Source: an uncultured Gemmatimonadales bacterium
GTDB lineage: Bacteria > Gemmatimonadota > Gemmatimonadetes > Gemmatimonadales > GWC2-71-9
Length of the DNA: 64,000 bases
Assembly (NCBI GenBank): GCA_963830455.1
Contig: CAWHMT010000004.1
Coordinates: 434,644 to 498,643 of the forward strand
Direction: 5' to 3'
In this document: one piece after another, positions 13,061 to 29,976 of the stretch
Layout of the letters: every line of letters starts with the position of its first letter
Position numbering within the stretch: position 1 is the stretch's first letter
The notes under the pieces: generated by a model
Database searches by the model: none
Told to the model about the DNA's origin: nothing
The model's input: only the letters and a program-made list of their open reading frames with translations
Made by a program: the position numbers and the translations under genes

Positions 13061-13094
13061 GAAAGTGCTGTGATTTGGCGACTTTTGACGGCCT

Positions 13095-13166
<72 letters not shown>

Positions 13167-13177
13167 CTTCAGCCCGC

Positions 13178-13806: not shown

Positions 13807-16020
13807 TTAGCGCCGCCGCCCGCCGCCGCCACGCCCACCACCACCACGACTCCCGCCGGAGGATCGCGTCGAGCTGCGCTGGCGCGCCTGGTATTCACGA
13901 TTCCCACCCTGCGAACCGTAGCTGCTGCCCCCGCGATCGCGTGACCAGTTGTTGCCCTGGCGGGATTCCCACCCACCACCCGACGTCCGGCGGTGCACAT
14001 TGCCGTTGCGATCGGCGAACACATTGTTGGAGCCGCGAGCGGTCCGCATTTGACTGGACGCTCGCTGCTGAGTCGAGCGGTCGGCGTTGCGAGCGCGGGT
14101 GTCAGGACGATTGTACAGATTCGAGCTGGCAGGCCGCTGCGACGCCGAGGGCCTGCTGGCCGGCCGCTGCCGGGCCCCACCGCCGGCCGTGTTCCCGATG
14201 TTCACGTTCTGGCGGCCGCGGTTCACGTTGCCGCCCCCCCGGTTCACGTTGATCGTGCAATTGAAGCAGCCGCGATAGCCACCGGCCGGGTAATAGCGGT
14301 TGCTGTTGCCGATCGCGATGCCGACGCCAACGGCGAAGAACGCCGTCCCGAACGTGGTGCCCATTCCGTAACCGGTGTACGGGTTGTAGGACGCCGAGAC
14401 GCCGTAGGTCACCGGGTACGGGTAGTAGACCGTGCCAACGTAGGGCGGATACGTATACCCGGTGCCGTACACGGGCACGCCGTAGTACGGATAAGCCCCG
14501 ACGTAGCCAGGCGTGTAGCCGACGTACACGACCTCCGGCGTCGAGCCGTAGACGTGCACAAAGGTCACGGGGTAAACCGGCACGCTAGGCGGAATCTTCG
14601 CGATCTCATCGCGCGGAATGCTGTCCGCCACGATCCACGGCCCCTGCGGGCTCGTCGCCTTGAACCAGACTGCGTTGTCGCACGCGTAGTAGGCACCGCC
14701 CACATGCAGCACCGAGGAGGGTGTGTTCGTGGCGTAGGCGACTAACGTGCCGGGGATCGCCACGAACTTCGGCTCGCCATCGTATTTCGCGGTGAAGGTC
14801 GTTTGGCTGCGCACCACCGCGGTTGTCTGAGGAATCTGCAAATCGAGGACGGCGTCCTGTGCCTCGACCGTCAACGCCACCGAGTTCCGAACTCCACCGA
14901 TCGGCGAGTCCGGCGGAATCTCCTGGAATGACGCGGGCAGCGAATCGGCTCGCGCAAAGCTCCACGGCCCCTGCACCGATTGGCTGCGGAACCAGCGCCC
15001 CGAGATCAGGAGGTAGTTGTCTTTGCCCTCCGTCTCACGGATCCAGGGCGTCTCGGTGTTTTCGACGTACAGCAGCTTGCCGCCTGCCGTCGTCGTCCAT
15101 TTGGGCGGTCCCTGCGTGGCGACCAGCTCGGTCGGCTCCGTGGCCGTCACGATGACCAGCGGCGGCGCGAACAATGTGTCGGTGCGGGCGGGCGCCGCCG
15201 CTGTATCGGGCTTCGTGGCCGCCGTGTCGCTGCTGGGGGCGGGCGCAAACAACGTGTCCACGCGTGCCACCGTGATGGTGTCGCCGGCCAGTTTACGGAT
15301 TGTGTCAGGCGGCGTCCCACCGGCAGTCCATGGCCCCTTCGGATCGGTTGCCGAGTACCAGCTGCCGGGACCCGCGCCCAGCCAGAACGTGCCGGTCACC
15401 GTGTCCTTCACGACGCCAAACGGCGTGTTCACCACCAAGGCGAGCGGTGTGTTCGGGATCGGCTGCAGGTGCGGCTCTCCATCATAGAGCAGCAGGACCG
15501 CGAGCTGCTCGGTGAACACGATCTTCGGCGCGTCGCTCTTCAAGCCGTCGGTGTGGCTCCGCTGCGCATCGGCGGATGCCAGGCTGGCCTGCAGGCGCGC
15601 CAGTGTCATGCGGAAGCCGGACTTGGGGAAGTCCATTTCGACGATTTGCGTGAACCGCCGCTGCTGCTCCTCGGTCGCGTCTGGCCAGCGCACCCGGGTG
15701 ACCTTGACGTCGCTGACCCACACCATCCCGGAGTCCCGGTCGACATCGATCGTCGCCGACATCCACATGGCGCCGAAAATGGGGTCCGCTCTGCCGGCCA
15801 CCTTGAGCGCGATCGCCCCTCGGGCAGTCAGCACATTGCCGGCGAGCTGCTCGGCCTGCGGTTGGTACAGCACGATGGTCCCGGTGGCGCCACCTGAAAC
15901 GGGGATCTCGCGGGGCCAGCTATAGTCCTGCGCCTGCAGTGCAGACGCGCACAAGACGAGCAACGTGAATAGGGGCGTACGCATGGCCGGAAAGTCGCGT
16001 CCGAGCCGGAAAAACGGCAT
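13807..16020 (-). CDS. Large secreted protein with W[YF]-x6-7-GPW repeats, a Tyr/Pro/Gly-rich segment and an Arg/Gly/Ser/Asn-rich tail
   Basis: Signal peptide MRTPLFTLLVLCASALQAQ. Repeats SWYSATDPKGPW, RWFRSQSVQGPW, VWFKATSPQGPW. Then YVGYTPGYVGAYPYYGVPVYGTGYTYPPYVG..., and a tail ...NVNRGGGNVNRGRQNVNIGN...SRGGGGRGGGGRRR. The start is 16020 or ATG 15984. Confidence 0.6.
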   Translation of the reverse strand: MPFFRLGRDFPAMRTPLFTLLVLCASALQAQDYSWPREIPVSGGATGTIVLYQPQAEQLAGNVLTARGAIALKVAGRADPIFGAMWMSATIDVDRDSGMVWVSDVKVTRVRWPDATEEQQRRFTQIVEMDFPKSGFRMTLARLQASLASADAQRSHTDGLKSDAPKIVFTEQLAVLLLYDGEPHLQPIPNTPLALVVNTPFGVVKDTVTGTFWLGAGPGSWYSATDPKGPWTAGGTPPDTIRKLAGDTITVARVDTLFAPAPSSDTAATKPDTAAAPARTDTLFAPPLVIVTATEPTELVATQGPPKWTTTAGGKLLYVENTETPWIRETEGKDNYLLISGRWFRSQSVQGPWSFARADSLPASFQEIPPDSPIGGVRNSVALTVEAQDAVLDLQIPQTTAVVRSQTTFTAKYDGEPKFVAIPGTLVAYATNTPSSVLHVGGAYYACDNAVWFKATSPQGPWIVADSIPRDEIAKIPPSVPVYPVTFVHVYGSTPEVVYVGYTPGYVGAYPYYGVPVYGTGYTYPPYVGTVYYPYPVTYGVSASYNPYTGYGMGTTFGTAFFAVGVGIAIGNSNRYYPAGGYRGCFNCTINVNRGGGNVNRGRQNVNIGNTAGGGARQRPASRPSASQRPASSNLYNRPDTRARNADRSTQQRASSQMRTARGSNNVFADRNGNVHRRTSGGGWESRQGNNWSRDRGGSSYGSQGGNREYQARQRSSTRSSGGSRGGGGRGGGGRRR

Positions 16021-16072
16021 AAGACTAAGGGGTTATTCCGGCCCTGCCTGAGTCCTGCGCATCGTGGAGCCC

Positions 16073-17488
16073 ATGCATACATCTCAACGTATTGCGGGGA
16101 TTCTGGCCGCCCTGGTTATCTCCGCCGTCCCGTTGGCCGCACAACACGGTGGGACGATCGAGCTTGGCGGCTTCGTGCGGTACGGGGATTACGACGACCA
16201 GCTGAACCTGGACGCGGCCGCCGGTTATGGGGGGCGGTTCGGTATCTTCTTCTCCCCGAAGTTTTTCATCGAAGCCGATGGAGCGTTCGTCCCGACGAAG
16301 TCGGGCTCCATCGACGTCGATCACACGCCGATCCACGTGCGCCTGACGGGTAACTTCGGGTTCACGAAGCGACTGGCGCTGCTGCTCGGCGCCGGCTGGG
16401 CGTACAACAAGTTCGGAAACGGCGTGGATGAGCAGGAGAACGGAGCCGGTGGGCTGGCTGGCCTGCGGCTCAGTCTCGGCAAGCGCCTCGCGCTGCGGGG
16501 CGACGTCATAGCGGACTACATGTTCGACCACGCGTCGAGCGTCGCGAATCCAACCGTCCATTACGCCGCGCAGGCGGGCGTGAGCCTCATGATCCGCGGC
16601 GGTCCGGGAGACAAGGACAAGGACGGTGTGATTGATTCGGCCGACCGGTGCGCGAACACTCCAGAGAATTCGCCGGTCGACGTGAACGGTTGCCCGGACG
16701 CGGACCGCGACGGCGTGCCGGACCAAGCGGACCGCTGCGCGCAGAGTCCCACCGGAATCGCCGTCGATGCGATCGGCTGCACGGACGTAGACAGTGACGG
16801 CGTCGTGGACCCGCAGGACCGCTGCACGAATACCCCCACGGGCACGCGCGTCGATGCGACCGGCTGCCCGGTGGACACTGACGGCGATGGCGTGGCCGAT
16901 CCAACCGACCGCTGCCCGGGTACGCCCCCCGGCGCGCGCGTCGATCCGGCGAACGGCTGCCCCACGGACGCGGATAATGATGGCGTCGTGGATAGCCAGG
17001 ACCGGTGCCCCGGCACGATTGGGGGGGTCGTCGTGGGTCCGACGGGGTGCCCGCCGGACGCCGATGGCGATGGCGTGGCGGATGCGCAGGACACATGTCC
17101 CGGCACGGCCGCAGGCGCGACCGTGGACGCCTCGGGCTGTCCCGCGGCCGGACCCGTGGTCCTCGAAGGCGTAGCCTTCCTGACCGGCAGCTCGAAACTG
17201 ACGCTGAACTCGCAGGGCCCACTGGACCGCGTGGTCACGGCGTTGCGGGAACGTCCCCAGCTGCGGGTCGTAATCGAAGGGCACACCGACAATGTCGGGA
17301 ATCGCGACGCCAACCTGCGGCTGTCCAAAGCTCGTGCCGACGCCGTGCGCGCCTACTTCATTGCCAAGGGCATCGCGGCGGACCGTCTGACGGCGGTCGG
17401 GATCGGACCCGATCAACCGGTTGCGCCCAACGATACAGAGGCAGGGCGGGCCAGGAACCGGCGCGTGCAGCTGCGGCAGCAGCCCTAG
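16073..17488 (+). CDS. OmpA-family outer-membrane protein with thrombospondin type-3 Ca-binding repeats
   Basis: Signal peptide and N-terminal beta-barrel, about eight DxDxDGVxDxxDxC repeats, C-terminal OmpA/MotB domain (IEGHTDNVGNRDANLRLSKARADAV...NRRV). Confidence 0.9.
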   Translation: MHTSQRIAGILAALVISAVPLAAQHGGTIELGGFVRYGDYDDQLNLDAAAGYGGRFGIFFSPKFFIEADGAFVPTKSGSIDVDHTPIHVRLTGNFGFTKRLALLLGAGWAYNKFGNGVDEQENGAGGLAGLRLSLGKRLALRGDVIADYMFDHASSVANPTVHYAAQAGVSLMIRGGPGDKDKDGVIDSADRCANTPENSPVDVNGCPDADRDGVPDQADRCAQSPTGIAVDAIGCTDVDSDGVVDPQDRCTNTPTGTRVDATGCPVDTDGDGVADPTDRCPGTPPGARVDPANGCPTDADNDGVVDSQDRCPGTIGGVVVGPTGCPPDADGDGVADAQDTCPGTAAGATVDASGCPAAGPVVLEGVAFLTGSSKLTLNSQGPLDRVVTALRERPQLRVVIEGHTDNVGNRDANLRLSKARADAVRAYFIAKGIAADRLTAVGIGPDQPVAPNDTEAGRARNRRVQLRQQP

Positions 17489-17500
17489 CGTAGACCGGGA

Positions 17501-17534
17501 ACGAGCACGGCGGCGTCTCTCGCGCCGTGCTCGT
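17501..17534. terminator. Hairpin terminator between convergent genes
   Basis: ACGAGCACGGCG-N10-CGCCGTGCTCGT: perfect 12-bp stem. Confidence 0.6.
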
Positions 17535-17550
17535 CTCCCACTCCTTGGCT

Positions 17551-18888
17551 TCAGTTCTCTCGAATCCTGCGCCCGGGGATGTTCTGCCCGTTCTGGTGCA
17601 GCGTCATGCCGTCGCGCGAGAACGTGATCTGCGCGTCGACGACGCGCAGGAAAAACGTCGAGTCGGACTCAGCGAAGATCGGGAAGCGCGGCTGGGCCGT
17701 CGCCTGGACGAACAGCCGCGCGGCTTCCCTCGTCACAACGACATGGAACGCGGGCGCCAGCTCGTACTCGCCGACGTAGCGCATCAGCACCGTCGAATCC
17801 ACGGCCACCTCGATGCGCCGCGTGGGAAGCGGACGCAGCGGGAACGTCTCATCCAGGAGATGAAAACCGATGTCATCGACACTCGCGTCGAAGTTGGACA
17901 GGACCACGACGCCTAACGCCCGCACCGGATCAAAGCCTGTGAATGAGCGGTAGCCGCCCGTCCCGCCGTTGTGCCACACGATGGTGCCGACCGGCCGCGC
18001 CAGAATGTGCCACCCGAGCCCGACCTTCATGCTCGGGTTATTGGTGGCGTGGCGCTCGCCGTGCGTGCGCCTGAGCGTCGGGGACAGCGGCGTCGCGCCG
18101 GAGTCGAGATTCGCCGCAATAAACGTCAGCATGTCGTTCACCGTCGACCGCAGCGCTCCCGCTCCCGCCAGCGTCGGCAGATCCCAGTTGGGCACCACTC
18201 GACCCTCGGCGTCGTGCCCGGGCGCGAGCCGCGCGCGCAGCGCCGGCGTCAGCGTGATCGCCGTTTCGCGCATGCCGAGCGGTGTGAGGATGCGCCCGCG
18301 CAGGAGCTCCTCGTAGCTCGCGCGCCCTTTCAGGGCCAGCGCGTGTCCAAGCAGTCCCATGCCGAGGTTCGAGTACTCGTATTCCGCGCCCACGTCCCGG
18401 GTGAGCTGATAGCCCGACAGAAACGTGTACAGCTGTTGCACGCTGTAGTCGGCATACGGATTCATCGTATCGCGCGGCGTGAGGTTCGAGGGCATGCGCG
18501 GCAGGCCGGAGGACTGGGTGGCCAGATCGAGCAGCGTGATCTCGCGGTCGTTGCGCGACGGCACTTTTACCGATCGTGGCAGGTACTGCGAGACCGCGTC
18601 GCCGAGCCGGACTTCCCCCCGGTCCACCATGTCCTGAAGCAGCGACGTGGTGAACACCTTGGTGATCGAGCCGATCTCGAACACGCCCGCAGAGTCCACT
18701 CCGGCGGCGATGATGCGCCGGGTGCCGGTCGCATCGAGCAAGCCGACGGCGATCCCCGCGCCGTGTTTGCCGGTGTCGGGCAGTGACGCGACGCGGGGCA
18801 GGAGCAACGCACGAACGGTCGAGTCGGCGGGCAGCAATGGCTGTTGCTGCAGCGTGACGGCGAGCGCGAACGCACGGAATAGGATCAT
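17551..18888 (-). CDS. Serine hydrolase, class C beta-lactamase/PBP family
   Basis: SxxK motif in FEIGSITKVFTT. YSN-like YEYSNLG. 445 aa with signal peptide. Confidence 0.85.
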   Translation of the reverse strand: MILFRAFALAVTLQQQPLLPADSTVRALLLPRVASLPDTGKHGAGIAVGLLDATGTRRIIAAGVDSAGVFEIGSITKVFTTSLLQDMVDRGEVRLGDAVSQYLPRSVKVPSRNDREITLLDLATQSSGLPRMPSNLTPRDTMNPYADYSVQQLYTFLSGYQLTRDVGAEYEYSNLGMGLLGHALALKGRASYEELLRGRILTPLGMRETAITLTPALRARLAPGHDAEGRVVPNWDLPTLAGAGALRSTVNDMLTFIAANLDSGATPLSPTLRRTHGERHATNNPSMKVGLGWHILARPVGTIVWHNGGTGGYRSFTGFDPVRALGVVVLSNFDASVDDIGFHLLDETFPLRPLPTRRIEVAVDSTVLMRYVGEYELAPAFHVVVTREAARLFVQATAQPRFPIFAESDSTFFLRVVDAQITFSRDGMTLHQNGQNIPGRRIREN

Positions 18889-18917
18889 CCGCTCGAATTT
18901 AGTATCTTCTCGCCGTC

Positions 18918-20657
18918 GTGCTCGTCCCCAAATTTTTCACCACCATCCAGGATTACAACCGGGAGCAGCTCACCCGGGACGTGATCGCGGGCGTCATCGT
19001 CGGCATCGTGGCGCTGCCGCTCGCCATCGCCTTCGCGATCGCCAGCGGGCTCAGTCCCGAGCGCGGACTCTACACCGCCATCGTCGCCGGCTTTCTCATT
19101 TCGCTGCTCGGCGGTTCACGTGTACAGATCGGCGGCCCGACGGGCGCGTTCGTGGTGATCGTCGCCGGCATCGTACACCAGCACGGGGTGGACGGCCTGC
19201 TCGTCGCGACATTGATGGCGGGCGCGATTCTCGTCGTGTTCGGCCTGGTGCGGCTTGGCGCCGCGATCAAGTTCATCCCGTTCCCGGTGACAATCGGGTT
19301 CACCAGTGGGATCGCGCTCATCATTTTTTCGAGCCAGGTAAAGGATCTGCTGGGCCTCGAGATGGGCCAGGCGCCCGCCGAGTTCCTCGCCAAGTGGGAC
19401 GCCTACGCCCGGGCGTTCGACTCGATGAACCCGTGGGCGTTCGCCGTCGCTGCGCTGGCCTTCACGATCATTCTTGTCTGGCCAAAGATCGAGCGCCGCA
19501 TCCCGGGGCCGTTCGTCGCACTGATCGTCACGACGGTGGTCGTGCAGGTGTTCCACGTGCCCGTCGAGACGATCGGCGCGCGGTTCGGGGTCATCCACGC
19601 GGGTCTGCCGCGGCCGTCGCTGCCGACGTTGACCATGCCGCTCATCACGTCGCTTGCAGGCCCCGCATTCACGATCGCGATGCTGGGGGCGATCGAGTCA
19701 CTGCTCTCGGCGGTCGTGGCCGATGGCATGATCGGCGGGCGGCACCGGTCCAACATGGAGCTGGTGGCGCAGGGCGTGGCGAACCTCGCGTCGCCGCTGT
19801 TCGGCGGCATGCCGGCGACCGGCGCCATCGCGCGCACGGCGACGAACGTGAAGAACGGCGGACGCACACCGGTCGCGGGAATCGTGCACGCCATCACGCT
19901 GCTCCTGATCACGCTGTTTTTCGGCCGCTGGGCGGGTCTCATCCCGCTGGCCACGCTCGCCGCGATCCTCGTCGTCGTGGCGTTCCACATGAGCGAATGG
20001 CGGACGTTCGTGTCGGAATTCCGCGCGCCCAAGAGCGACGTCGCGGTGCTGCTGACGACGTTTCTGCTCACGGTACTCGTGGACCTTACGGTCGCCATCG
20101 AGGTCGGCATGGTGCTCGCCGCCTTCCTCTTTATGCGCCGGATGGCGGAGGTCACGAACATCAAGGTCCTCACGCACGAGTTCGAGGACCCAACGGACGA
20201 CTTCGAGCACGACCCCAACGCCGTGCAACGGCGCGTGGTGCCGGAGGGCGTTCAGGTCTACGAGATCACGGGACCATTCTTCTTCGGCGCCGCCGAGATG
20301 TTCAAGGACCGGGTGACCCGCATTGCAGGCAAACCGAAGGTGCTGATTCTCCGGATGCGGCACGTGCCGGCGATGGATTCGACCGGGCTGCACGCATTGC
20401 GCGATGTCGTACGGCGTAGCCGCAACGAGGGGTCGCTCGTCATCCTGTCGGACGTGCACGCGCAGCCGGTCGTGGCCCTCGAGCGCTCGGGGACATACGA
20501 TGAGCTGGGCGAGGAAAACATCCATGGGAACATCGACGACGCCTTGAACCGCGCTCGGGAGCACCTCGGCCTGCCCCGGATGCCGCGGCCCGGCTTCGCC
20601 ACGCCCACGGTGGCGCGGGAGACGTCCCCCCCGACGGGGACGCCAGCGATGCCATAA
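18918..20657 (+). CDS. SulP-family anion permease with C-terminal STAS domain
   Basis: N-terminal ...DVIAGVIVGIVALPLAIAFAIASG, multiple TMs, STAS (VYEITGPFFFGAAEMF...LILRMRHVPAMDSTGLHAL). Confidence 0.9.
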   Translation: MLVPKFFTTIQDYNREQLTRDVIAGVIVGIVALPLAIAFAIASGLSPERGLYTAIVAGFLISLLGGSRVQIGGPTGAFVVIVAGIVHQHGVDGLLVATLMAGAILVVFGLVRLGAAIKFIPFPVTIGFTSGIALIIFSSQVKDLLGLEMGQAPAEFLAKWDAYARAFDSMNPWAFAVAALAFTIILVWPKIERRIPGPFVALIVTTVVVQVFHVPVETIGARFGVIHAGLPRPSLPTLTMPLITSLAGPAFTIAMLGAIESLLSAVVADGMIGGRHRSNMELVAQGVANLASPLFGGMPATGAIARTATNVKNGGRTPVAGIVHAITLLLITLFFGRWAGLIPLATLAAILVVVAFHMSEWRTFVSEFRAPKSDVAVLLTTFLLTVLVDLTVAIEVGMVLAAFLFMRRMAEVTNIKVLTHEFEDPTDDFEHDPNAVQRRVVPEGVQVYEITGPFFFGAAEMFKDRVTRIAGKPKVLILRMRHVPAMDSTGLHALRDVVRRSRNEGSLVILSDVHAQPVVALERSGTYDELGEENIHGNIDDALNRAREHLGLPRMPRPGFATPTVARETSPPTGTPAMP

Positions 20658-21358
20658 TGCAGCTGACCGTGCGCGAGGCGGCATCGTACCTGCGGGTCGA
20701 CGAGGCCACGGTGCGGCGCTGGATCGCCCGCCGCGCCCTTCCCGTCCATCGTGCCAACGAGCGGCTCTATCTGAACGCGATCGAGCTGTGGGAGTGGGCG
20801 ACAGAGAATGGGATCCCGGTCTCGCGCGCCCTGCTCGAGCAGGCGCAGCGCCGACCGGACCAGGTGCCGCCGCTATCAGCCCTGCTGCTCGTCGGCGGCA
20901 TTCATCATGACGTGGGCGGCAGCGATAAGCCCGGTGTGCTGCGCGAGATCGTTCAGCACCTCCCGCTGCCGGACGATGTCGATCGTGAGTTCCTGGTGAC
21001 GACGCTCGAGGCGCGGGAGGCGATGGGCTCCACGGGCATCGGGGACGGCATCGCCATCCCCCATGTGCGCAACCCTATCCTGCTGCACGTCACCGCTCCT
21101 TTCGTCACGCTGTGCTTGCTGCGGCACCCCGTGGACTTCGGCGCGCTGGATGGGCAGCCCGTCCACGCGTTGTTTACCGTGATCAGCGCCAACGTCCCTG
21201 GCCACCTCCGCATTCTCGGCCAGCTCGGCTTCGCCCTGCACGATGACGAGCTGCGACGCCTGCTGAGTCGCCGAGCGCCCGCGGCCGACATCCTCACGCG
21301 CGTACAAGCGGTCGAGGGGCGCGCCAGCGGCGTGCACCCGTCCCCCGCCGTCGAGTGA
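20657..21358 (+). CDS. Excisionase-type HTH fused to a PTS EIIA type-2 (PtsN-like) domain
   Basis: LTVREAASYLRVDEATVRRWI (HTH_17-like), then an EIIA-2 core with the phospho-His motif GDGIAIPHV. The start shares one nt with the sulP stop (TAATG). Confidence 0.8.
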   Translation: MQLTVREAASYLRVDEATVRRWIARRALPVHRANERLYLNAIELWEWATENGIPVSRALLEQAQRRPDQVPPLSALLLVGGIHHDVGGSDKPGVLREIVQHLPLPDDVDREFLVTTLEAREAMGSTGIGDGIAIPHVRNPILLHVTAPFVTLCLLRHPVDFGALDGQPVHALFTVISANVPGHLRILGQLGFALHDDELRRLLSRRAPAADILTRVQAVEGRASGVHPSPAVE

Positions 21359-21368
21359 GGAGGCGCCC

Positions 21369-23318
21369 GTGACGCTGGTCGCGCTCGGCTTGGCGCTGAT
21401 CGTGCTGGCCGGCTTGACCGCGGCCGTGCTGGCGCGGCGTCCGGCCGTGGGCGAGATGGTGTTCCGCATTCTGTTCGGCGCAGGGTGCACCCTGGGCGCG
21501 CTCCCGGCGCTGGCCGTGCTGGCGGGGAACACGGTGCCTGACGTGGGCCTGGCGTCGGCGACGCCGTTCGGGCCGTGGGTGTTCGGCCTCGACGCGCTCT
21601 CTGCCGTGTTCCTGTTGGCGGTGTTGAGCGTGGGCGCCGCCTGCGCGTTCTACGGATTGGCGTATCTCGCGCACGAGCGGACCCACCGCGCCGTTGGCGT
21701 CGCGCACTTGCTGCTGGCGGTGCTGGTCGCCACTCTCGCCCTCGTCGTGGTCGCGCGCGCCGCGCTGCCCTTCCTCATCGCCTGGGAAGGGATGGCGGTC
21801 GCGGCGTACTTGCTGGTGGTGTTCGAGCACGAGCGCCGCGAGGTGCGCCGCGCCGGCGGGATCTACGTGGTGGCCACGCACGTGGGGACGTTGCTCTTGT
21901 TCGCGCTGTTTGCGATCTGGGCGGGCGGCGGCAGTGATCTCAGCTTTGCGGCGCTGGCGGCGCATCCGCCATTCTCGGCGGGCCGGGGCGCGATGATCCT
22001 GGTCGTGGCGCTGATCGCGTTCGGGCTCAAAGCAGGCGCCGTCCCTTTCCACTTCTGGTTGCCCGAGGCCCATGCCGCGGCGCCGGCGCACGTTTCGGCC
22101 CTGATGTCAGGAGTCGTCATCAAGATGGGGATCTATGGGCTGCTGCGCACGATCGTCCTCTTCGGGACGCCGCCGCCCTGGTGGGGTTGGGTGCTGCTTG
22201 CGCTCGGAGCGGTCTCCGGGATCCTGGGGGTCGTGTGGGCCCTCGCGCAGCATGATGTCAAGCGGCTGCTCGCGTTCCACAGCGTGGAGAACATCGGGAT
22301 CATCCTGCTCGGCGTCGGGGCTGGCGCTCTGGGTGTCACGTACGGGCACCCGCTGATCGCCGTACTCGGCTTCGCCGGTGCCGCATTGCACACACTCAAT
22401 CACGCGCTCTTCAAGAGCCTCCTCTTTCTCGGCGCGGGGTCCGTGATCCACGCGACCGGCACCAGGGAGATTGACCGTCTCGGCGGGCTCGCGCCACGCA
22501 TGCCTTGGACCGCGGCCACATTCCTCGTCGGCTCGGCGGCCATCGTCGGGCTCCCCCCGCTCAACGGGTTCGTCAGTGAATGGGTGGTTTTCCAGGCCCT
22601 GCTCCGCGGGGCAAGCGCAGGGGGCGCGGTGCAGTTGGCGGGGCTGGCGGCCGTGGTCCTGGCGTTCATCGGGGCGCTGGCGCTTGCCTGTTTCGCAAAA
22701 GTGGTAGGAGTCTTGTATTTGGGGACGCCGCGACACGCCCTGGCGACGGAGCCGCGGGAGGCGACGCCGGCGATGATCCGGCCGCTCGTCGGCCTGGCCG
22801 CCGGGTGCGTCGTGATCGGGCTCCTCCCGATCGCGGTCGTGCCAGCGGCGCTCCGGGTCGGGTCGCTCGTCGCGGGCATGTCTCTCCAGGCGGATGTCGC
22901 CGCTGGCCCCGCGACCGCTTTTACTGTCGGGCTCGCGCTGAGTCTGCTGGTGGCATGGGGGCTATACGTCGGGCTCGGTCACCGGCGTCAACGGCTCGAG
23001 GCAGCGACCTGGGGCTGCGGGTATCCGGCGCCGACGCCTCGCATGGCGTACACAGCGAGCTCATTCGCGGCCCCACTACTTGACGTCTTTCGGTCGTTCT
23101 CGGGCGTCCATACACGCCGCACGGCCGACGCATTTTCCACCCACGCGATCGACCCCGTCCTGGACAGCGTCCTGCTTCCCGCCTGGCGCGGCGCCCGCGG
23201 GGCGGCGGCGTGGGTGCGCCGAGTGCAGCGCGGCGGGTTGTCGCGCTACCTGCTGCTCATTGGCGCCGCCGTCGTCGCGTCGCTGCTCTACCTCCTCGTG
23301 GCTGGGCGGAATCCGTGA
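21369..23318 (+). CDS. NuoL/HyfB/MnhA-like proton-conducting antiporter subunit
   Basis: 649-aa polytopic protein with WLPEAHAAAPAHVSALMSGVVIKMG and FHSVENIGIILLG motifs of the Proton_antipo_M family. Confidence 0.85.
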   Translation: MTLVALGLALIVLAGLTAAVLARRPAVGEMVFRILFGAGCTLGALPALAVLAGNTVPDVGLASATPFGPWVFGLDALSAVFLLAVLSVGAACAFYGLAYLAHERTHRAVGVAHLLLAVLVATLALVVVARAALPFLIAWEGMAVAAYLLVVFEHERREVRRAGGIYVVATHVGTLLLFALFAIWAGGGSDLSFAALAAHPPFSAGRGAMILVVALIAFGLKAGAVPFHFWLPEAHAAAPAHVSALMSGVVIKMGIYGLLRTIVLFGTPPPWWGWVLLALGAVSGILGVVWALAQHDVKRLLAFHSVENIGIILLGVGAGALGVTYGHPLIAVLGFAGAALHTLNHALFKSLLFLGAGSVIHATGTREIDRLGGLAPRMPWTAATFLVGSAAIVGLPPLNGFVSEWVVFQALLRGASAGGAVQLAGLAAVVLAFIGALALACFAKVVGVLYLGTPRHALATEPREATPAMIRPLVGLAAGCVVIGLLPIAVVPAALRVGSLVAGMSLQADVAAGPATAFTVGLALSLLVAWGLYVGLGHRRQRLEAATWGCGYPAPTPRMAYTASSFAAPLLDVFRSFSGVHTRRTADAFSTHAIDPVLDSVLLPAWRGARGAAAWVRRVQRGGLSRYLLLIGAAVVASLLYLLVAGRNP

Positions 23319-24226
23319 GCGGGGCAGGACTGATTGGCGTGGGCATCTTGGGGGCTGTTGCCCCGGCGATGCCGGGAATCGCCGCGAAGACCAAGTCGCT
23401 GCTGACGGGGCGGCGCGGCCCGCCCGTGCTCCAGCTCTACGCCGATCTCGGAAAGCTGCTGCGCAAAGGCAGCGTCTACAGTCGCACGACGACGTGGGTG
23501 TTCCGCGCTGGCCCGGTCGTCGTGCTGGTCACGCTCGCCGTGGCGGTGCTGCTCCTCCCGCTCGACGGGCGCGAGGCACCCGCTCGCTTCACCGGCGATC
23601 TGGTGGCGTTCGCCGGGTTACTGGCGCTCGGGCGATTCGCGCTGGTGCTGGCGGGGCTGGATACGGGGTCGAGCTTCGAGGGGCTCGGGGCGAGTCGCGA
23701 GGTCACGATCGCGAGCTTCGCCGAGCCCACGCTGTTCCTCTGCTTCATCGCGCTGGTGCTCGCGACGGGGGATCTCTCGCTCAGTGGGATGCTGGGGACA
23801 CCGCTGGCCGCAGCGTGGCCTCGCGCGGGTGCATCGCTGAGTCTGGTGGGCATCAGTCTCTTCGTTCTGCTGTTGGCCGAGAACTCGCGCGTGCCGGTCG
23901 ATGATCCCGCGACGCACCTCGAATTGACCATGATCCACGAGGTGATCGTGCTCGACCACGGCGGACCGGACCTCGCCCTGATCCTCTATAGTAGCGCGCT
24001 GAAGCTTGCGCTGTTCGGGGTGTTGGTGGTGGCGGTCTTTGTGCCTCGTGCGGGGTTCGGGGGGCCGGCGGCGCTGGCCTTGCTGTTCGCGGGGCTCGGC
24101 GTCGTGGCCGTGGCGGTCGGAGTGGTGGAGTCGATCATGGCGCGGCTCCGGTTGGCCCGCGTGCCACAGCTGCTGGTTGGGGCGGGGACCCTGGCGCTGT
24201 TTGCCACGATCCTGCAGCTCGGATGA
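23315..24226 (+). CDS. NuoH/HyfC/HycD-like membrane subunit
   Basis: GTG start in a GTGA overlap. PGIAAKTKSLLTGRRGPPVLQLYADLGKLLRKG... and AENSRVPVDDPATHLELTMIHE are typical HycD/NuoH motifs. Confidence 0.8.
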   Translation: MSGAGLIGVGILGAVAPAMPGIAAKTKSLLTGRRGPPVLQLYADLGKLLRKGSVYSRTTTWVFRAGPVVVLVTLAVAVLLLPLDGREAPARFTGDLVAFAGLLALGRFALVLAGLDTGSSFEGLGASREVTIASFAEPTLFLCFIALVLATGDLSLSGMLGTPLAAAWPRAGASLSLVGISLFVLLLAENSRVPVDDPATHLELTMIHEVIVLDHGGPDLALILYSSALKLALFGVLVVAVFVPRAGFGGPAALALLFAGLGVVAVAVGVVESIMARLRLARVPQLLVGAGTLALFATILQLG

Positions 24227-24864
24227 CCATGCGCGACGCCGCTCCGATCGTCCTGCTGCTGGTGGTGCTCTCGGATCTCGCGATCCTTGGCACGTCGCGG
24301 CTCAGCAGCTGTATTCGCGGGCTGGCGGCGCAGGGCTTCCTGCTTGGCTTGCTGCCGGTACTGATCGCGCCGCAGCTCTCGGTCCACGCCGTGAGTCTCG
24401 CGGTGGGCACGGTGATCGTGAAAGGCGTGGCGCTGCCGTGGTTCCTCTCGTGGGCGATTCGTGAGGCCGCGGTGCGCCGCGAGATCGAGCCGATCGTCGG
24501 GTTCATCGCGTCCCAACTCCTCGGGGTGCTCGCGGTCGCGCTCGCGTTCGCAATCGCCACCCGCCTTCCCTTGCACACCGTCCAACCGCTGCTGGTGCCA
24601 GTCTCGCTCGCAACGCTGATGATCGGATTCATCGTGCTGACCACCAGACGCAAAGCGCTGGTGCAGGTGGTAGGCTATGTCATCCTCGAGAACGGCGTCT
24701 ATCTCTTCGGCCTGACGCAGACCGAGAGTGTGCCGTTTCTCATCGAGCTGGGAGTGCTACTGGACGTCTTCGTCGGTGTGTTCATCATGGGTATCGTCGT
24801 GTTCCACATCAATCGCGAATTCGATTCGCTCGATGCGACGCGCCTGACGGAGCTGACGGACTGA
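24223..24864 (+). CDS. HyfE-like (NuoK-related) membrane subunit
   Basis: ATGA overlap. ...TTRRKALVQVVGYVILENGVYLFGL... is the HyfE signature. Confidence 0.7.
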   Translation: MTMRDAAPIVLLLVVLSDLAILGTSRLSSCIRGLAAQGFLLGLLPVLIAPQLSVHAVSLAVGTVIVKGVALPWFLSWAIREAAVRREIEPIVGFIASQLLGVLAVALAFAIATRLPLHTVQPLLVPVSLATLMIGFIVLTTRRKALVQVVGYVILENGVYLFGLTQTESVPFLIELGVLLDVFVGVFIMGIVVFHINREFDSLDATRLTELTD

Positions 24865-26318
24865 TGCGCTTGCTCGCGCTGTGCGCGATCCCTCTGGTCA
24901 CGGCGCTGGTGGTGTTGGGCGTGCCGGTCTTCCGGGGACGGCGGGTACCCGTGGCGCTGCTCCTCGTTGTCGCGGCTGCGCACCTGGCACTGGTCATCTC
25001 CCTGTGGATCACGCCCGCGCTTCCCGCGCTCGGCGGGTGGCTGGCCGCCGATCCGCTCGGGCTTGCCGTCCTGACGCTGACCAGTGTGCTGTTCCTGGTC
25101 ACGGCGATCTACATCGTCGGGTACCTGCGGCACGAGGCGCCGCGCAGCGGCCGTGTGTTCGCGGGCGGCCTGCTCGCGTTCCTGGCGGCGGCGTCCGTCG
25201 TAGCACTGTCCCACCACCTGGCGATGCTCTGGGTCGGCATGGAGGCAACGACGCTGTCGGTCGCGCCGCTCGTGTTCCTGCACCGCGACCGCCGCTCGCT
25301 CGAGGCGACGTGGAAGTACCTCGTCGTCTCGTCGGTCGGAATCGCGCTCGCGTTGCTGGGCACCTTCTTCCTTGCGAGCGCGCAGGGCGAGATCGGTCGC
25401 CCGTTACTGCTCCCCGACCTCATCGCGCATGCCCGCGAGCTGCATCCGGCATGGTTGCGCGCCGCCTTCCTGTTTCTCCTGGTCGGCTTCGGCACCAAGA
25501 TGGGCCTCGCTCCGATGCATACGTGGAAGCCCGACACGTACGGAGAAGCACCGAGTCTTGTCAGCGGTCTCATGGCGGGCTCGCTGACGAGCTGCGCGTT
25601 CCTCGGAGTCGCGCGTATCACCGAGGTCCTGGCCGCCGCCGGGCTGGTGTCGTTCGTGCAGCCGGTGCTCATCGCGTTCGGCCTGCTCTCGCTGGTCGTC
25701 GCGGCGACGTTCATCATCGGTCAGCGTGACGTGAAGCGGCTGCTCGCGTACTCGAGCGTGGAGCACATGGGCCTGCTTGTGCTCGGACTGGGGCTGGGCG
25801 GCGTCGGGGCGTACGGCACCATGCTCCACCTCGTCAACAACGGTCTGGCGAAGGGGTGGATGTTTCTGGTCACGGGCAACATTGTGCTCGCCACCGGGAG
25901 CGCGACGGCGGCCGCAAACCGGGGACTGGCCCGCACGCTCCCCGCGTCGGCGACGCTACTTGTGCTGGGCCTGTTCGCCGTCACCGGCTCGCCCCCGTTC
26001 GGGCTCTTCCTCAGCGAATTCACGATTCTGCGGGCGGCCATTGACGGCGGGCACGCGTGGATCGCCGTGATCATCCTCGTGACGCTGGCGGTCATCTTCG
26101 TCGGCATGGCGGCGTTGGTGCTCGGGATCGTACTCGGCACACCTCCCGCTCCCGCCGGCACAGCACGCCGCATCGCTCCGGCGCGAGAGAGCCCGTGGCT
26201 GATCGCGGGGCCCATCGCCTTGGCTGTCATCGTGCTGATGCTTGGCGTCTACCTCCCCGGCCCGCTGCAGGACGTTCTGACGCGTGCGGCACTAGCCCTC
26301 GGCGGACGAGGACCATGA
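24864..26318 (+). CDS. NuoM/N / HyfF-like antiporter subunit
   Basis: 484-aa polytopic protein. GFGTKMGLAPMHTWKPDTYGEAPSLVSGLMAG and AYSSVEHMGLLVLGLG motifs. Confidence 0.85.
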   Translation: MRLLALCAIPLVTALVVLGVPVFRGRRVPVALLLVVAAAHLALVISLWITPALPALGGWLAADPLGLAVLTLTSVLFLVTAIYIVGYLRHEAPRSGRVFAGGLLAFLAAASVVALSHHLAMLWVGMEATTLSVAPLVFLHRDRRSLEATWKYLVVSSVGIALALLGTFFLASAQGEIGRPLLLPDLIAHARELHPAWLRAAFLFLLVGFGTKMGLAPMHTWKPDTYGEAPSLVSGLMAGSLTSCAFLGVARITEVLAAAGLVSFVQPVLIAFGLLSLVVAATFIIGQRDVKRLLAYSSVEHMGLLVLGLGLGGVGAYGTMLHLVNNGLAKGWMFLVTGNIVLATGSATAAANRGLARTLPASATLLVLGLFAVTGSPPFGLFLSEFTILRAAIDGGHAWIAVIILVTLAVIFVGMAALVLGIVLGTPPAPAGTARRIAPARESPWLIAGPIALAVIVLMLGVYLPGPLQDVLTRAALALGGRGP

Positions 26319-27832
26319 ACTCGCTGCGCAAGCCGGGTCTTCGTAACCGACGCGCCATCCCGTGGGGAACGGTTTCCGTAGAGCCGATGGAGCGCTTCCG
26401 GGAATCTGTGGCGGAGGCTGTGGCCGGCGGATGGCGGGTGGCGTCGCTTTTCGGCATGCCGGAAGAGCACGACCAGACGCGCCTCGTCGCGATCCTAGCG
26501 GACGACGCCGAGGGGCAGCTCGGTGTGACGAGCGCAGTCGCTGGGGATCGCTTTCCGTCGCTCGCGATGGCGGTTCCCCAGGTCCACGGGTTCGAGCGCG
26601 AAATCGCCGAGCAATGCGGCGTGGTTCCCGAGGGTCATCCCTGGCTCAAGCCCCTGCGCCGGCATCCACCCGACCACCTTTCGCCCGGCCGGCGCGTTGC
26701 GCTGCCGGACCGCGAGGCGTACCCCTTCTTTCAGATCGCGGGAGAGGAAGTGCACGAGGTCGCCGTCGGGCCCGTGCACGCGGGCATCATCGAGCCCGGC
26801 CATTTCCGGTTTCAGGCACACGGCGAGCAGGTGTTGTTCCTCGAGATCATGCTCGGCTATCAGCACCGCGGCGTGGAGCCGCTGCTCGAGCGCCTGGGGG
26901 GGGACCGCGAGCGGGGCGTTCTCGTGGCCGAGTCGATCGCGGGCGATACGGTCATCGGCCACGCCGGCGCCTATTGCGGTGCGATCGAAGCGATCGCCCG
27001 GAGCCGGAAGACCCCGCGCGGGCAAACCGTACGCGGGATCGCGCTCGAGCTGGAGCGGTTGGCGAATCACATCGGCGATCTTGGCGCGATTGCCGCGGAC
27101 GTCGCCTTCCAGCCGGCGGCGGCTTACCTGGGTCGCATGCGCGGCGATTGTCTCAATCTGCTGATGACGCTTTCCGGCAGCCGCTACGGGAGAGGTCTGG
27201 TACGGCCGGGGGGCGCGGCGTTCGACCTCACCCCGGCTATGGCCGGCGAGATGCGCGATCGGCTGCAGCGCCTCGGCGAGGAGCTCGATCCGGTCCTCGC
27301 CCTGTTGTTCGAGACGGCGTCGGTCCAGGCCAGGCTCGAGGGCGTCGGCGTGGTGTCCCGGCAGGCGTGTGTCGAGTACGGCTTCGTCGGCCCAGTCGCG
27401 CGGGCGTGCGAGCTGCCGCGCGACGTGCGGCACGATCACCCCTGGGGAATCTTCCGGTTCGCCCACATCCCGGTGGCCACGGCGTGGGCCGGAGACGTGC
27501 TTGCGCGTGCGCTGGTCCGCCGCGTGGAGATCCAGCGGTCGCTCGAGTTCATCGTCGAGCAGCTCGGTGCGCTGCCCAAGGGCCCAGCGCGTGTGGAGTG
27601 CGGACCCCTGCGACCGAACGAGATGGCGGTGGCGATGGTCGAGGGCTGGCGGGGCGAGATCGTACATGTCGTGATAACCGACGGCGCCGGCCGCGTCCGC
27701 CGGCACAAGGTGACCGATCCCTCCTTCCACAACTGGACTGCCCTCACGCTGGCGATGCCCGGGAACGAGATCTCCGATTTCCCGCTCTGCAACAAGAGCT
27801 TCAACCTGTCGTACGCGGGGCACGACCTGTGA
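26315..27832 (+). CDS. Fused NuoC-NuoD / HycE-HyfG-like 'large subunit' lacking all four NiFe-ligand cysteines (Ehr-type)
   Basis: ATGA overlap. VGPVHAGIIEPGHFRF...GYQHRGVE core. Where hydrogenases carry R-x-C-G-x-C-x3-H it reads ESIAGDTVIGH, and where they carry D-P-C-x2-C-x2-R it reads DFPLCNKSFNLSYAGHDL. Confidence 0.85.
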   Translation: MNSLRKPGLRNRRAIPWGTVSVEPMERFRESVAEAVAGGWRVASLFGMPEEHDQTRLVAILADDAEGQLGVTSAVAGDRFPSLAMAVPQVHGFEREIAEQCGVVPEGHPWLKPLRRHPPDHLSPGRRVALPDREAYPFFQIAGEEVHEVAVGPVHAGIIEPGHFRFQAHGEQVLFLEIMLGYQHRGVEPLLERLGGDRERGVLVAESIAGDTVIGHAGAYCGAIEAIARSRKTPRGQTVRGIALELERLANHIGDLGAIAADVAFQPAAAYLGRMRGDCLNLLMTLSGSRYGRGLVRPGGAAFDLTPAMAGEMRDRLQRLGEELDPVLALLFETASVQARLEGVGVVSRQACVEYGFVGPVARACELPRDVRHDHPWGIFRFAHIPVATAWAGDVLARALVRRVEIQRSLEFIVEQLGALPKGPARVECGPLRPNEMAVAMVEGWRGEIVHVVITDGAGRVRRHKVTDPSFHNWTALTLAMPGNEISDFPLCNKSFNLSYAGHDL

Positions 27833-27848
27833 GGCGAGGCGGCGTGCC

Positions 27849-28511
27849 GTGTTGACCTGGCTCAGAACGAGACTCCGGGAGGGAATCCGGACGATTCGCT
27901 TCCCCGGAAATGGCGCGGATTTCCCGGAGCGGTTCCGAGGCCGGCCCCGAGGGTCCTCGGATCTCGGCACGTGTCTCTTCAGCCCGGAGGAGGTCGAATA
28001 CAGCCGCGATTATCGCATGGCCACATCCACACGGGAGGCGTTGGTCAGCCCCACCGGCGAGGTCAAGCTCGCCCGCGCCCTGGACGAGCGCGCGCGGAAG
28101 TTGTTCCGGCGCTCGCTGCGGCTCCGCTCGGTTGTCGCGGGGAGCTGCAACGGGTGCGAAGCCGAGCTCGTCGCGCTCGGAAACGTGGTGTTCGACTTAG
28201 CGCGATTCGGCGTCCAGTTCGTCGCCTCGCCGCGGCACGCCGACGGTATCGTCGTCACTGGCGCGGTGAACCGGAACATGCGGCGCGCGCTGGAGCTGAC
28301 GTATGAAGCAGTCCCACCGCCGAAGATCGTGATCGCGGTCGGGGCCTGCGCTATCAGCGGGGGCCCGTTTGTGGGCAGTCCCGAGGTCGGCACAGGCGTC
28401 GGCGAGATCCTCCCGGTAGACCTGTGGGTGCCGGGGTGCCCACCGCACCCGCTCACGACGCTCGACGGTCTGCTCCGCTTGCTGGGGGCGATCGACGGCG
28501 AGGAATCTTAG
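27849..28511 (+). CDS. NuoB/HycG-HyfI-like small subunit (one 4Fe-4S site) with a vestigial HycF/NuoI-like N-terminus
   Basis: GSCNGCE, VGACAISGG and VPGCPPHP provide the four Cys. The N-terminal ~90 aa start TIRFPGNGADFPERFRGRP (HycF/NuoI-like) but contain no CxxCxxCxxxCP motif. Confidence 0.8.
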   Translation: MLTWLRTRLREGIRTIRFPGNGADFPERFRGRPRGSSDLGTCLFSPEEVEYSRDYRMATSTREALVSPTGEVKLARALDERARKLFRRSLRLRSVVAGSCNGCEAELVALGNVVFDLARFGVQFVASPRHADGIVVTGAVNRNMRRALELTYEAVPPPKIVIAVGACAISGGPFVGSPEVGTGVGEILPVDLWVPGCPPHPLTTLDGLLRLLGAIDGEES

Positions 28512-29494
28512 CGCGCCTCGAACATTCCCACCGCGCCCTTCGTGGCGTCCGCAAACGCGTGACTGACGAAGGGGTACGTGCCCGGCTCCACAAGACGCGT
28601 CTCGAAGATCGCGCCCCCTCCGACAGGGACTGTGACCGTCTGCACTCCCTCGAGGGGATGCGTGAGCGAACCGTCGAGGTACACTCTGTCAAAGATGGCC
28701 CCGACTACGTGGAACGCTGAGAAGCGATTGGGGCCCGCGTTCACGACATACATGCGCAGTTTTTCGCCGACGCCGACGCGAATGGGGTGATGCGCGTACT
28801 CCGCCTCGCGGCCGTTGAACACGACGTAGTCCGGCGCCAGTCCCAACAGCTTCTCCCAATCGATGATGCGGCTCGAGTCGGCGAGCGTTTTCGTGTAGAA
28901 CTCGCTTTGGACAAACACAAACTCCTTCGCTGGGGCGCGCCCTTCGCGTGGATCGACGATGATGGCGCCGTACATCCCGTTCGCGATGTGCAGCGCGACC
29001 GGTGCGGTGCCGCAGTGATACATGAACGCTCCCGGCACGTGCGGCACAAACCGATAGTGCAGCGAGTCGTGGGGCATCAGGTTCACGTAGGCGCGGCTCG
29101 GCGCGATCTCGGCCGCGTGGAAATCCAGGCTGTGCGGCATGGGGGCCTCGTTCACGAGCGTGAAGTCCACTGTGTCCCCGACGGTGACGCGCAGGACGGG
29201 TCCCGGCACCCGGCCGTCGAACGTCCAGGCGTCGTACGTCACGCCTTGTGCGATCGTGATTTTCATATGGCGAATGGCAACGCGGAGGCGATGCAAGCGT
29301 CCCGTTGCGCGGGCGGGCGCGACGGGATCGATGGGGGCGGGCAGCTCACCTGAACCGACCGGCGCCTCGCCGTGCGATACATCTGCCGGAGCCGTCGCGG
29401 GTGGGGTCTCGGCGTGCTGTGTCGGTCGAGACTCCGGCTCACGGCAGGCGCACAATGCAACAGCTGTAAGAAGGGATAATCCGTGACGGCGCAT
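28508..29494 (-). CDS. nirK: Copper-containing nitrite reductase (NirK-type two-domain cupredoxin), lipoprotein form
   Basis: MPHSLDFHAAE (T1 His, catalytic Asp, T2 His), MYHCGTAPVALHIANGMYG (T2 His, T1 Cys/His/Met), FHVVGAIFD, PFVSHAF. Signal peptide with LCAC, then a Pro/Ala-rich linker. Confidence 0.8.
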   Translation of the reverse strand: MRRHGLSLLTAVALCACREPESRPTQHAETPPATAPADVSHGEAPVGSGELPAPIDPVAPARATGRLHRLRVAIRHMKITIAQGVTYDAWTFDGRVPGPVLRVTVGDTVDFTLVNEAPMPHSLDFHAAEIAPSRAYVNLMPHDSLHYRFVPHVPGAFMYHCGTAPVALHIANGMYGAIIVDPREGRAPAKEFVFVQSEFYTKTLADSSRIIDWEKLLGLAPDYVVFNGREAEYAHHPIRVGVGEKLRMYVVNAGPNRFSAFHVVGAIFDRVYLDGSLTHPLEGVQTVTVPVGGGAIFETRLVEPGTYPFVSHAFADATKGAVGMFEAR

Positions 29495-29504
29495 CTAATC
29501 GCTC

Positions 29505-29531
29505 CTTCCTGATGGCTTCAGGGGCTCTTCA
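29505..29531. promoter_or_regulatory. Three phased CTTC[CA] repeats (CTTCC-N6-CTTCA-N6-CTTCA) in the nirK / CBS divergent region
   Basis: Units start at 29505, 29516 and 29527 (11-bp spacing). The 16-mer CTTCCTGAnnnCTTCA recurs at 54201. Confidence 0.45.
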
Positions 29532-29574
29532 TCTGAAAAGGGCGTACGTGTCTTTGTACCCTCGAGGAGGACCC

Positions 29575-29976
29575 ATGAAGGTCGCCGAGCTGATGCAGAC
29601 GAGTCTCAAGACGATCAGCAGCGAAGCCACCATCGCCGACGCCGTCGTCGTCTTCGCCGAGGCGCAAGTTTCGGCCGTGCCGGTTATCGATCGTCTGGGA
29701 CGCGCGGTCGGCGTGGTGTCGACGCGCGAGATCCTCAAGGCCGAAAGCGCGTGCGATTCGCCGCTTGCCCGCGATCGGTTGTTCGAGCGCACGCGCGTGC
29801 TCGAGATCATGACGCCCTGGCCGGTGACCATCGGTCCTGATCTCGACGTCCGGCTGGCCGCGCAGGAGATGCTCTATCTCAACGTGCAGCGACTGTTCGT
29901 CGAGTTTGACGGCGCGCTCGTGGGCGTCATCTCCCAGACGGATATCGTGGGGGCGGTGGCGACTGCCAAAGTCTAG
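29575..29976 (+). CDS. CBS-domain pair protein
   Basis: Two CBS motifs (VSAVPVIDRLGRAVGVVSTREI; VQRLFVEFDGALVGVISQTDI). GGAGG 5 nt upstream of the ATG. Confidence 0.85.
   Translation: MKVAELMQTSLKTISSEATIADAVVVFAEAQVSAVPVIDRLGRAVGVVSTREILKAESACDSPLARDRLFERTRVLEIMTPWPVTIGPDLDVRLAAQEMLYLNVQRLFVEFDGALVGVISQTDIVGAVATAKV

Follow-up and report, generated by a model that had tools for sequence, protein, structure and literature searches.

The class of energy-converting / Ech-hydrogenase-related (Ehr) complexes was reportedly defined by Coppi 2005 and Marreiros et al. 2013. Its published members lack the cysteines that hold the NiFe center of hydrogenases (PMC6349859, PMC10284858), and the class lies close to group 4f and is of unknown function (PMC10284858). 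Examples include the products of GSU0739-45 in Geobacter sulfurreducens (EhrA-D, L, S) and relatives in Nitrospira, Margulisbacteria, and Melainabacteria (PMC6349859, PMC10284858, PMC7894505). Ehr is abundant in formate-grown Geobacter (PMC7894505), and the Rv0081-87 genes of Mycobacterium tuberculosis have been reported to encode an EHR complex without hydrogenase function (PMC6728331). HydDB deliberately excludes Ehr proteins as homologues that do not metabolize H2 (PMC5037454). Here, we studied a locus of this kind in a stretch of 64,000 nucleotides (hereafter the window) from an uncultured Gemmatimonadales bacterium (GenBank assembly GCA_963830455.1, contig CAWHMT010000004.1, positions 434,644 to 498,643), for which an earlier note had described a hydrogenase-like large subunit with all four NiFe-ligand cysteines replaced. 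That finding is a rediscovery of the already named Ehr/Hyq family, and the identification of the protein as the large subunit of an Ehr complex (Hyq in rhizobia) is secure. As set out below, this subunit, EhrL, probably serves as the junction subunit of an ion-translocating complex that would work without normal electron through-flow.

In Azorhizobium caulinodans, the cluster hyqRBCEFGI encodes HyqG, a protein of 504 amino acids (aa) in which both CxxC motifs are absent, and the authors who described it considered a NiFe site in HyqG “uncertain, if not unlikely” (PMC3357923). Deletion of hyq raised H2 evolution about tenfold in an optimized diazotrophic culture (PMC3357923), and hup hyq double mutants released ~90-fold more H2 from nodules, which single mutants did not (PMC2930871). 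H2 recycling was lost in hup hyq double mutants and not in single mutants (PMC2650096, PMC2930871, PMC3357923), and strains without the entire hup/hyp region reportedly still recycle H2 (PMC2930871). Cell-free H2 activity of Hyq has never been shown, as the Azorhizobium study itself states (PMC3357923), and the recycling phenotype is known from Azorhizobium only.

Comparison of the locus with described systems

The window operon resembles Ehr in its antiporter-like, NuoH-like, and NuoB-like subunits and in its cysteine-less large subunit, and differs from the Ehr examples in that its small subunit lacks both ferredoxin-type clusters and in that genes for a helix-turn-helix (HTH)-EIIA protein and a SulP permease are added. 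Its likeness to Hyq extends over the full length of the large subunit (36% identity to Rhizobium leguminosarum HyqG by BLASTP, with the motifs SGDS and SYSGHDL in the latter), over the gene order (regulator, B, C, E, F, G, I), and to the R. leguminosarum small subunit (HyqI, 177 aa), which has the NuoB-type cluster only and no ferredoxin domain. Unlike the window regulator, however, HyqR is a 129-aa HTH protein; as the two show no similarity, the idea that HyqR is the equivalent of the window HTH-EIIA protein was rejected. Further, hyq is NifA-controlled in diazotrophs, whereas nifH was not found in the window genome, and nitrogenase-linked H2 recycling therefore does not apply to this organism and was discarded as an explanation for the locus.

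With group 4 [NiFe] hydrogenases (HycE of 7Z0S, group-4f-like), the locus shares scaffold residues, a hyf-like gene order, and a NuoB-type partner with the proximal [4Fe-4S] cluster, but it lacks the cysteines of the motifs RxCGxCxxxH and DPCxxCxx[HR], the L1 Arg, and the maturation peptide. With NuoD/Nqo4 of complex I, it shares the fold and the position beside a NuoB-type cluster and a NuoH-like subunit, whereas Tyr87 and His38 of Thermus Nqo4 are replaced by G210 and I159 in the window large subunit. The NuoD equivalog models scored far below their cut-offs (NF004739, 183 bits against a cut-off of 360; TIGR01962, 146 against 459), so the earlier doubt that this could be a standard quinone-reducing NuoD was justified. 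The M. tuberculosis genes Rv0082-Rv0087 (hyc-like and DosR/Rv0081-regulated), compared by description only, presumably encode the same six kinds of subunit in a different gene order, with the small subunit first. MbsL of Pyrococcus, from the MBS/Mbx-type complexes, keeps two of the four NiFe cysteines; it matched the window large subunit (0/4 cysteines) more weakly than HycE did (6u8y_L, E 1e-24 vs. 8e-49).

The large subunit has lost its NiFe site

The start of the large subunit overlaps the upstream stop codon (ATGA) and agrees with the lengths of its homologues (503-505 aa). A Pfam Complex1_49kDa match (E 3e-39) together with a weak N-terminal match to Complex1_30kDa indicates a fused NuoC/NuoD-type subunit, like HycE. 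Escherichia coli HycE (7z0s_E) was the top solved relative in a HMMER search (E 7.7e-49), followed by MbhL, Thermus Nqo4, and other NuoD proteins, and it also came first in a fold search with the predicted model (template modeling score 0.82), ahead of NuoCD of E. coli complex I. Homology to the HycE/NuoD family is far above chance, and the motifs from which a HycE/HyfG/NuoD-like core had been proposed are all present in the translation, with GYQHRGVE at residues 181-188. The AlphaFold2 (AF2) model was confident except in the inter-domain linker and beta1-beta2 hairpin (132-181) and in the last five residues. Low predicted local distance difference test (pLDDT) values at residues 151-166 of the hairpin, which is common to cysteine-containing relatives, are expected for an interface loop in a monomer model.

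In the HMMER alignment to HycE (residue mapping with an offset of +12 for 7z0s_E chain numbering), the query segment “iagdtvigh” lies under “vcgicgfah” and “fnlsya” under “ldpcys”. The HycE ligands C241, C244, C531, and C534 thus correspond to A209, T212, S499, and G502, the same four replacements that had been read from the sequence before. Cysteines hidden by misalignment were ruled out: HMMER, MAFFT, and BLASTP agree on one register, and no alternative register puts Cys pairs at L1 or L2. The L1 Arg of hydrogenases, present in 7/7 relatives that keep all four cysteines (hereafter CCCC), is S207 in the window protein. The C-terminus lies three residues past the last ligand position, which is the point at which HycI cleaves HycE; the C-terminal maturation peptide is therefore absent.

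Since all four thiolate ligands are gone, the large subunit cannot ligate a NiFe(CN)2CO center, and the statement that it is not a [NiFe] hydrogenase is solid. The broader claim of the earlier note, that the complex is not a hydrogenase, is supported only in part and is neither proven nor refuted; a complete lack of H2 chemistry is likewise not proven, because rhizobial hyq knockouts gave H2-recycling phenotypes.

Conservation of the former metal pocket

A search of 1.84 billion representatives at 50% identity gave 822 proteins below E 1e-30, of which the best 150 were aligned. Gemmatimonadota metagenome bins contain many close homologues (71-97% identity), which bear the annotation “Ni,Fe-hydrogenase III large subunit” or “NADH-quinone oxidoreductase subunit C”; named family members belong to Hydrogenedentota, Acidobacteriota, Bacteroidota, and Longimicrobiales. 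The full set of four NiFe cysteines is found in only seven of the best 150 representatives. In the others the replacements are themselves conserved, with [A/S/C]-G-D-[S/T] in place of the L1 motif and S-Y-x-G-x-D-L in place of the L2 motif, from which the family signature G-D-[ST] (L1) and S-x-x-G-x-D-L (C-terminus) can be drawn; the window protein reads AGDT and SYAGHDL. Among 93 full-length cysteine-less representatives, D211, a new residue, is conserved in 95%, S499 in 96%, and G502 in 99%, and the Arg of the hydrogenase motif ER.CG.C is lost. Scaffold residues common to cysteine-less and CCCC proteins include H155, E160, R240, E245, E247, R248, and H252, as well as D370, R372, D394, R398, E443, and D504. 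From these patterns, the old metal pocket appears to have been rebuilt as a conserved polar site formed by G210-D211-T212, S499, G502, and D504, beside E160.

A maximum-likelihood tree of 101 full-length representatives contains a single branch (Shimodaira–Hasegawa approximate likelihood ratio test [SH-aLRT] 97) that divides six CCCC proteins from 95 cysteine-less proteins, with the window protein among the latter. This split is consistent with all four NiFe ligands having been lost once, in an ancestor whose descendants then radiated widely. We assign the CCCC sister clade to group 4f on the basis of the published placement of Ehr (PMC10284858) and the gene order at one CCCC locus (L086), not of a HydDB classification.

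Across 80 loci, identity is higher for the large subunit than for the other operon subunits. For instance, in L079 the large subunit is 68% identical, compared with 40% for HyfB, 48% for HyfF, 56% for HyfE, and 61% for both HyfC and the small subunit. Such values bear directly on the view that the locus is a decaying hydrogenase relic without function. That view draws on the missing catalytic ligands, on the two lost Fe-S clusters, and on a patchy distribution (33/301 genomes, 2/8 in the genus of the window). However, the genes have intact, translationally coupled reading frames, identity across the order is 67-88% with the large subunit the best conserved in the operon, and the replacement residues are nearly invariant across phyla. 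Because of this conservation, the relic reading is effectively refuted, and we assign it next to no probability.

Large subunits at three loci labeled as Deltaproteobacteria, Saccharimonadaceae, and Verrucomicrobiia (L042, L061, and L068, respectively) are 69-88% identical to the Gemmatimonadota protein and lie in the same operon; these contigs are probably mis-binned. On a Variovorax plasmid (L091), two hyf-like cassettes lie ~3.4 kb apart (3399-10683 and 14095-18422), the first of which includes a cysteine-less-type match that is 41% identical to the window large subunit.

Small subunit and Fe-S clusters

The N-terminal part of the window small subunit, EhrS, is the remnant of a HycF/NuoI-type ferredoxin domain in which the ligands of both clusters are lost, and the NuoB/HycG module that follows has all four cysteines for the proximal [4Fe-4S] cluster (SCNGCE, GACA, and GCPP). 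In distant Ehr loci, the small subunit consists of a 2x[4Fe-4S] ferredoxin-like domain fused to NuoB/HycG, with 12/12 cysteines. We scored cysteine patterns in 80 loci. Both ligand sets of the ferredoxin domain are complete in five loci, none from Gemmatimonadota (CCCC-CCCC-CCCC); one set, made up of motif I Cys1-3 and motif II Cys4, is complete in 44 loci (CCCx-CxxC-CCCC); only the other set is complete in a single locus (L085); and neither is complete in 30 loci, the window included. Going by the Nqo9 ligands, the set lost first may be the one adjoining the NuoB cluster. The NuoB cysteines, on the other hand, are all intact in 78/78 complete copies. When the last ferredoxin-type cluster is traced over the large-subunit tree, its loss takes six changes, at least three of them forced by well-supported branches. 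Judged by these ligand patterns, the electron-input wire has been shed repeatedly within Gemmatimonadota, and the cluster beside the large subunit has never been lost. The segment 27849-28133 of the window also carries a replacement motif, C-L-F-[SA]-P-E-E, that is conserved across Gemmatimonadota.

Three alternatives to the junction role of EhrL carry some weight: residual redox chemistry via the single cluster has the most, followed by a Hyq-type “endo-hydrogenase” and then by coupling to SulP. In the first, the complex would be a redox-driven pump resembling complex I or Pyrococcus MBS, in which a donor reduces the NuoB-type [4Fe-4S] cluster directly and electrons move on to an acceptor such as menaquinone or a sulfur/nitrogen compound, with an acceptor site either in the Asp/Thr/Ser pocket or at the EhrL/EhrS/HyfC interface. 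The unbroken retention of the proximal-cluster cysteines (78/78) and the strong selection on the pocket beside this cluster are both consistent with such a pump, as are the full three-cluster wire of Ehr outside Gemmatimonadota and the nirK respiratory gene that adjoins the operon. We nevertheless regard it as rather unlikely, given that both ferredoxin-type clusters are gone in the window and were lost ~six times in the phylum, that the quinone-site Tyr of complex I is absent, and that no donor module (FdhF, HycB, or NuoEFG) is encoded beside any of the 89 loci examined.

Operon organization and the SulP permease

The operon consists of eight tightly packed, translationally coupled genes on the same strand, for SulP, HTH-EIIA, HyfB-, HyfC-, HyfE-, and HyfF-like subunits, EhrL, and EhrS (Table 1). 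The longest open reading frame of the HyfC-like gene starts at 23210; its NuoH-like product aligns well with HycD, but only from residue 42 onward, and the stop codon of hyfB is overlapped by a GTG at 23315 (GTGA), so the true start is probably at 23315.

Table 1. Features of the Ehr operon in the window (PTS, phosphotransferase system; pTM, predicted template modeling score; TM, transmembrane helix)
Feature	Position	Strand	Remarks
EhrL/HyqG-type large subunit	26315..27832	+	505 aa; HycE 7z0s_E best solved relative; AF2 pLDDT 85.9, pTM 0.89
Large subunit domains			NuoC-like, ~residues 1-120; NuoD/HycE-like, ~145-505; NiFe ligands absent
Beta1-beta2 hairpin VGPVHAGIIEPGHFRF	26765..26812	+	Residues 151-166; includes E160 in EPGH motif
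Former L1 motif AESIAGDTVIGHAGAY	26927..26974	+	Residues 205-220; Cys to A209, Cys to T212
Former L2 motif and C-terminus DFPLCNKSFNLSYAGHDL	27776..27829	+	Residues 488-505; Cys to S499, Cys to G502
EhrS small subunit	27849..28511	+	~1-95 ferredoxin-domain remnant; ~96-220 NuoB/HycG module
SulP/STAS anion permease	18918..20657	+	Translationally coupled to EIIA gene (TAATG overlap)
HTH_17 and PTS EIIA (type 2) protein	20657..21358	+	Profile matches
HyfB/HycC-like antiporter-type subunit	21369..23318	+	TM5 Glu, TM7 Lys, TM8 Lys, and TM12 Glu kept
HyfC/HycD/NuoH-like subunit	23315..24226	+	Likely start GTG 23315
HyfE-like small membrane subunit	24223..24864	+	Profile matches
HyfF-like antiporter-type subunit	24864..26318	+	TM5 Glu, TM7 Lys, and TM12 Glu kept; TM8 Lys position is Thr

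The core of HyfB, HyfC, HyfE, HyfF, large subunit, and a fused ferredoxin and NuoB protein occurs in the same order at distant cysteine-less relatives (L082, L084, L085, L087, L088, and L089) and at the true CCCC relative L086, and this six-gene cassette is found in Hydrogenedentota, Acidobacteriota, and Bacteroidota. The HTH-EIIA gene lies directly upstream in nearly all Gemmatimonadota loci that reach that far, and also in L082 (Hydrogenedentota) and L085; it was not upstream in the other distant loci examined. A second HTH-EIIA gene is present besides the upstream copy in L024 (Longimicrobiales), directly 3' of the small-subunit gene (12314-13240). Tandem HyfB-like antiporter paralogues are found in many Gemmatimonadota relatives (for example, L024 at 3073-5061 and 5054-7016, and L043 at 3074-5065 and 4282-7026); the window has one.

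The operon begins ~29 nt (18889-18917) from the start of a divergent AmpH-like gene, counted to the putative GTG start of sulP. No sigma-70-like promoter was found in 18400-29700, where the scan for promoters and terminators was uninformative. Control by a fluoride riboswitch was dismissed, as neither the window nor eight related loci gave an Rfam match above the gathering score, and a permissive riboswitch scan of 17400-21500 gave a chance-level match only. At the other end, a NirK-like copper nitrite reductase gene (28508-29494, minus strand) directly follows the small-subunit gene; it is convergent in the window and in L002. A NirK-like gene also follows the small-subunit gene in the nearest relatives (L005-L009 and L042), on the same strand in six loci.

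The position of sulP as the first gene of the operon, with its stop codon overlapping the next start (TAATG), could suggest that the complex energizes or regulates anion uptake by the co-transcribed permease (sulfate, bicarbonate, or dicarboxylate), in analogy with the complex-I-derived CO2/bicarbonate systems NDH-1MS and DAB. SulP is, however, encoded in only about six of the nearest relatives and is missing from the remaining Gemmatimonadota loci and from every distant locus, and it was ruled out as a universal partner. The operon also has no carbonic-anhydrase-like or CupA/DabA-like gene, and the permease is nearer to DauA than to BicA (535 vs. 285 bits). We thus consider this coupling the most doubtful of the three alternatives and quite improbable.

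Genomic context and H2 metabolism

The cassette behaves like an accessory function with a patchy distribution in the phylum, found in 33 of the 301 high-quality Gemmatimonadota genomes and in two of the eight in the genus of the window. Genes for Enzyme I, HPr, and three EIIA-type proteins are present in the window genome, and a phosphorelay could thus reach the EIIA domain; a separate canonical nuoD is also present. Further, a true [NiFe] large subunit (PF00374, 771 bits) and HypD are encoded on the same contig at C4:519876-527907, ~58-64 kb downstream from the operon and ~21-29 kb past the end of the window. This finding disposes of any argument from missing Hyp maturation genes. A 782-aa open reading frame lies beside these two genes. 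In the genus, a full-length [NiFe] large subunit is encoded by the two Ehr-carrying genomes and by no others.

In the same sample of 301 genomes, a [NiFe] hydrogenase is present in 20/33 Ehr-positive and 78/268 Ehr-negative genomes (odds ratio 3.7, Fisher p 6e-4, uncorrected for phylogeny), a co-occurrence that may come from shared ancestry, lifestyle, or linkage. The association would also be consistent with the proposal made for Azorhizobium Hyq, that the complex is an H2:quinone oxidoreductase that needs no Hyp maturation and activates H2 in its cysteine-free pocket, with or without an extra cofactor. Support for such an “endo-hydrogenase” comes from the nodule H2 release of hupSL hyq double mutants, ~90 times higher and not seen in single mutants, and from continued H2 recycling by hup/hyp-deleted strains (PMC2930871, PMC3357923). 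The full-length homology of R. leguminosarum HyqG, with the same motifs, the same gene order, and a small subunit without a ferredoxin domain, is a further point in its favor. However, no H2-activating chemistry is known for an Asp/Ser/Thr site, and the cysteines near the pocket are not conserved throughout the family (C492 in 63%; Cys at position 501 in 42%). The lack of cell-free activity noted for Hyq (PMC3357923) and the treatment of Ehr as non-hydrogenase in HydDB (PMC5037454) argue the same way; rhizobial physiology is not applicable to a genome without nifH, and shared ancestry or lifestyle may account for the co-occurrence with Hup. Thus, we hold an endo-hydrogenase to be improbable. 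Equally improbable is the more specific claim that the pocket of D211, T212, S499, and E160 beside the [4Fe-4S] cluster is a new H2-activating or H2-sensing site. If it were true, the Ehr/Hyq complexes would be “endo-hydrogenases” that need neither nickel nor Hyp proteins, in line with the rhizobial hyq knockouts.

A probable role as an ion-translocating junction

Ehr is a six-subunit, complex-I-like membrane complex descended from hydrogen-producing enzymes, whose NiFe site has been lost; its gene order and almost all of its scaffold residues are also those of the group-4f-like [NiFe] hydrogenases that contain the cysteines. The reading that we favor, and consider probable on the conserved features described above, is that EhrL acts as a junction subunit in a complex that translocates ions but lacks normal electron through-flow. 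EhrL, the small subunit, and the NuoH-like subunit would still make up the junction at which ion translocation by the membrane arm is coupled to what happens in the peripheral arm, and electron flow from a soluble donor would have been given up in this lineage. The junction, with its single cluster and Asp-lined pocket, would most likely act as a gate or sensor, or bind a small ligand, and would thereby control or drive cation or proton movement. The operon is probably under PTS-type control via the HTH-EIIA protein.

Several points weigh against this junction role. Its mechanism is inferred, and the strict retention of the NuoB cysteines is equally compatible with persisting redox chemistry. 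In the 44 one-cluster loci, the cluster that is kept may be either the one proximal or the one distal to the NuoB cluster. In addition, the rhizobial hyq knockouts point to H2 consumption (PMC2930871, PMC3357923).

Ehr/Hyq complexes occur in many phyla, including M. tuberculosis, Geobacter, Nitrospira, rhizobia, and about a tenth of the sampled Gemmatimonadota, and they are among the larger groups of complex I relatives without an assigned reaction. The copy in the window does not add a new class but sharpens the question, in that nothing else in the operon is as strongly constrained as the pocket that took the place of the NiFe site. Either the family operates without electron through-flow, or it relies on a chemistry that has not yet been described; both outcomes would be relevant to the way in which ion pumping is linked to a peripheral site in complex-I-type machines.

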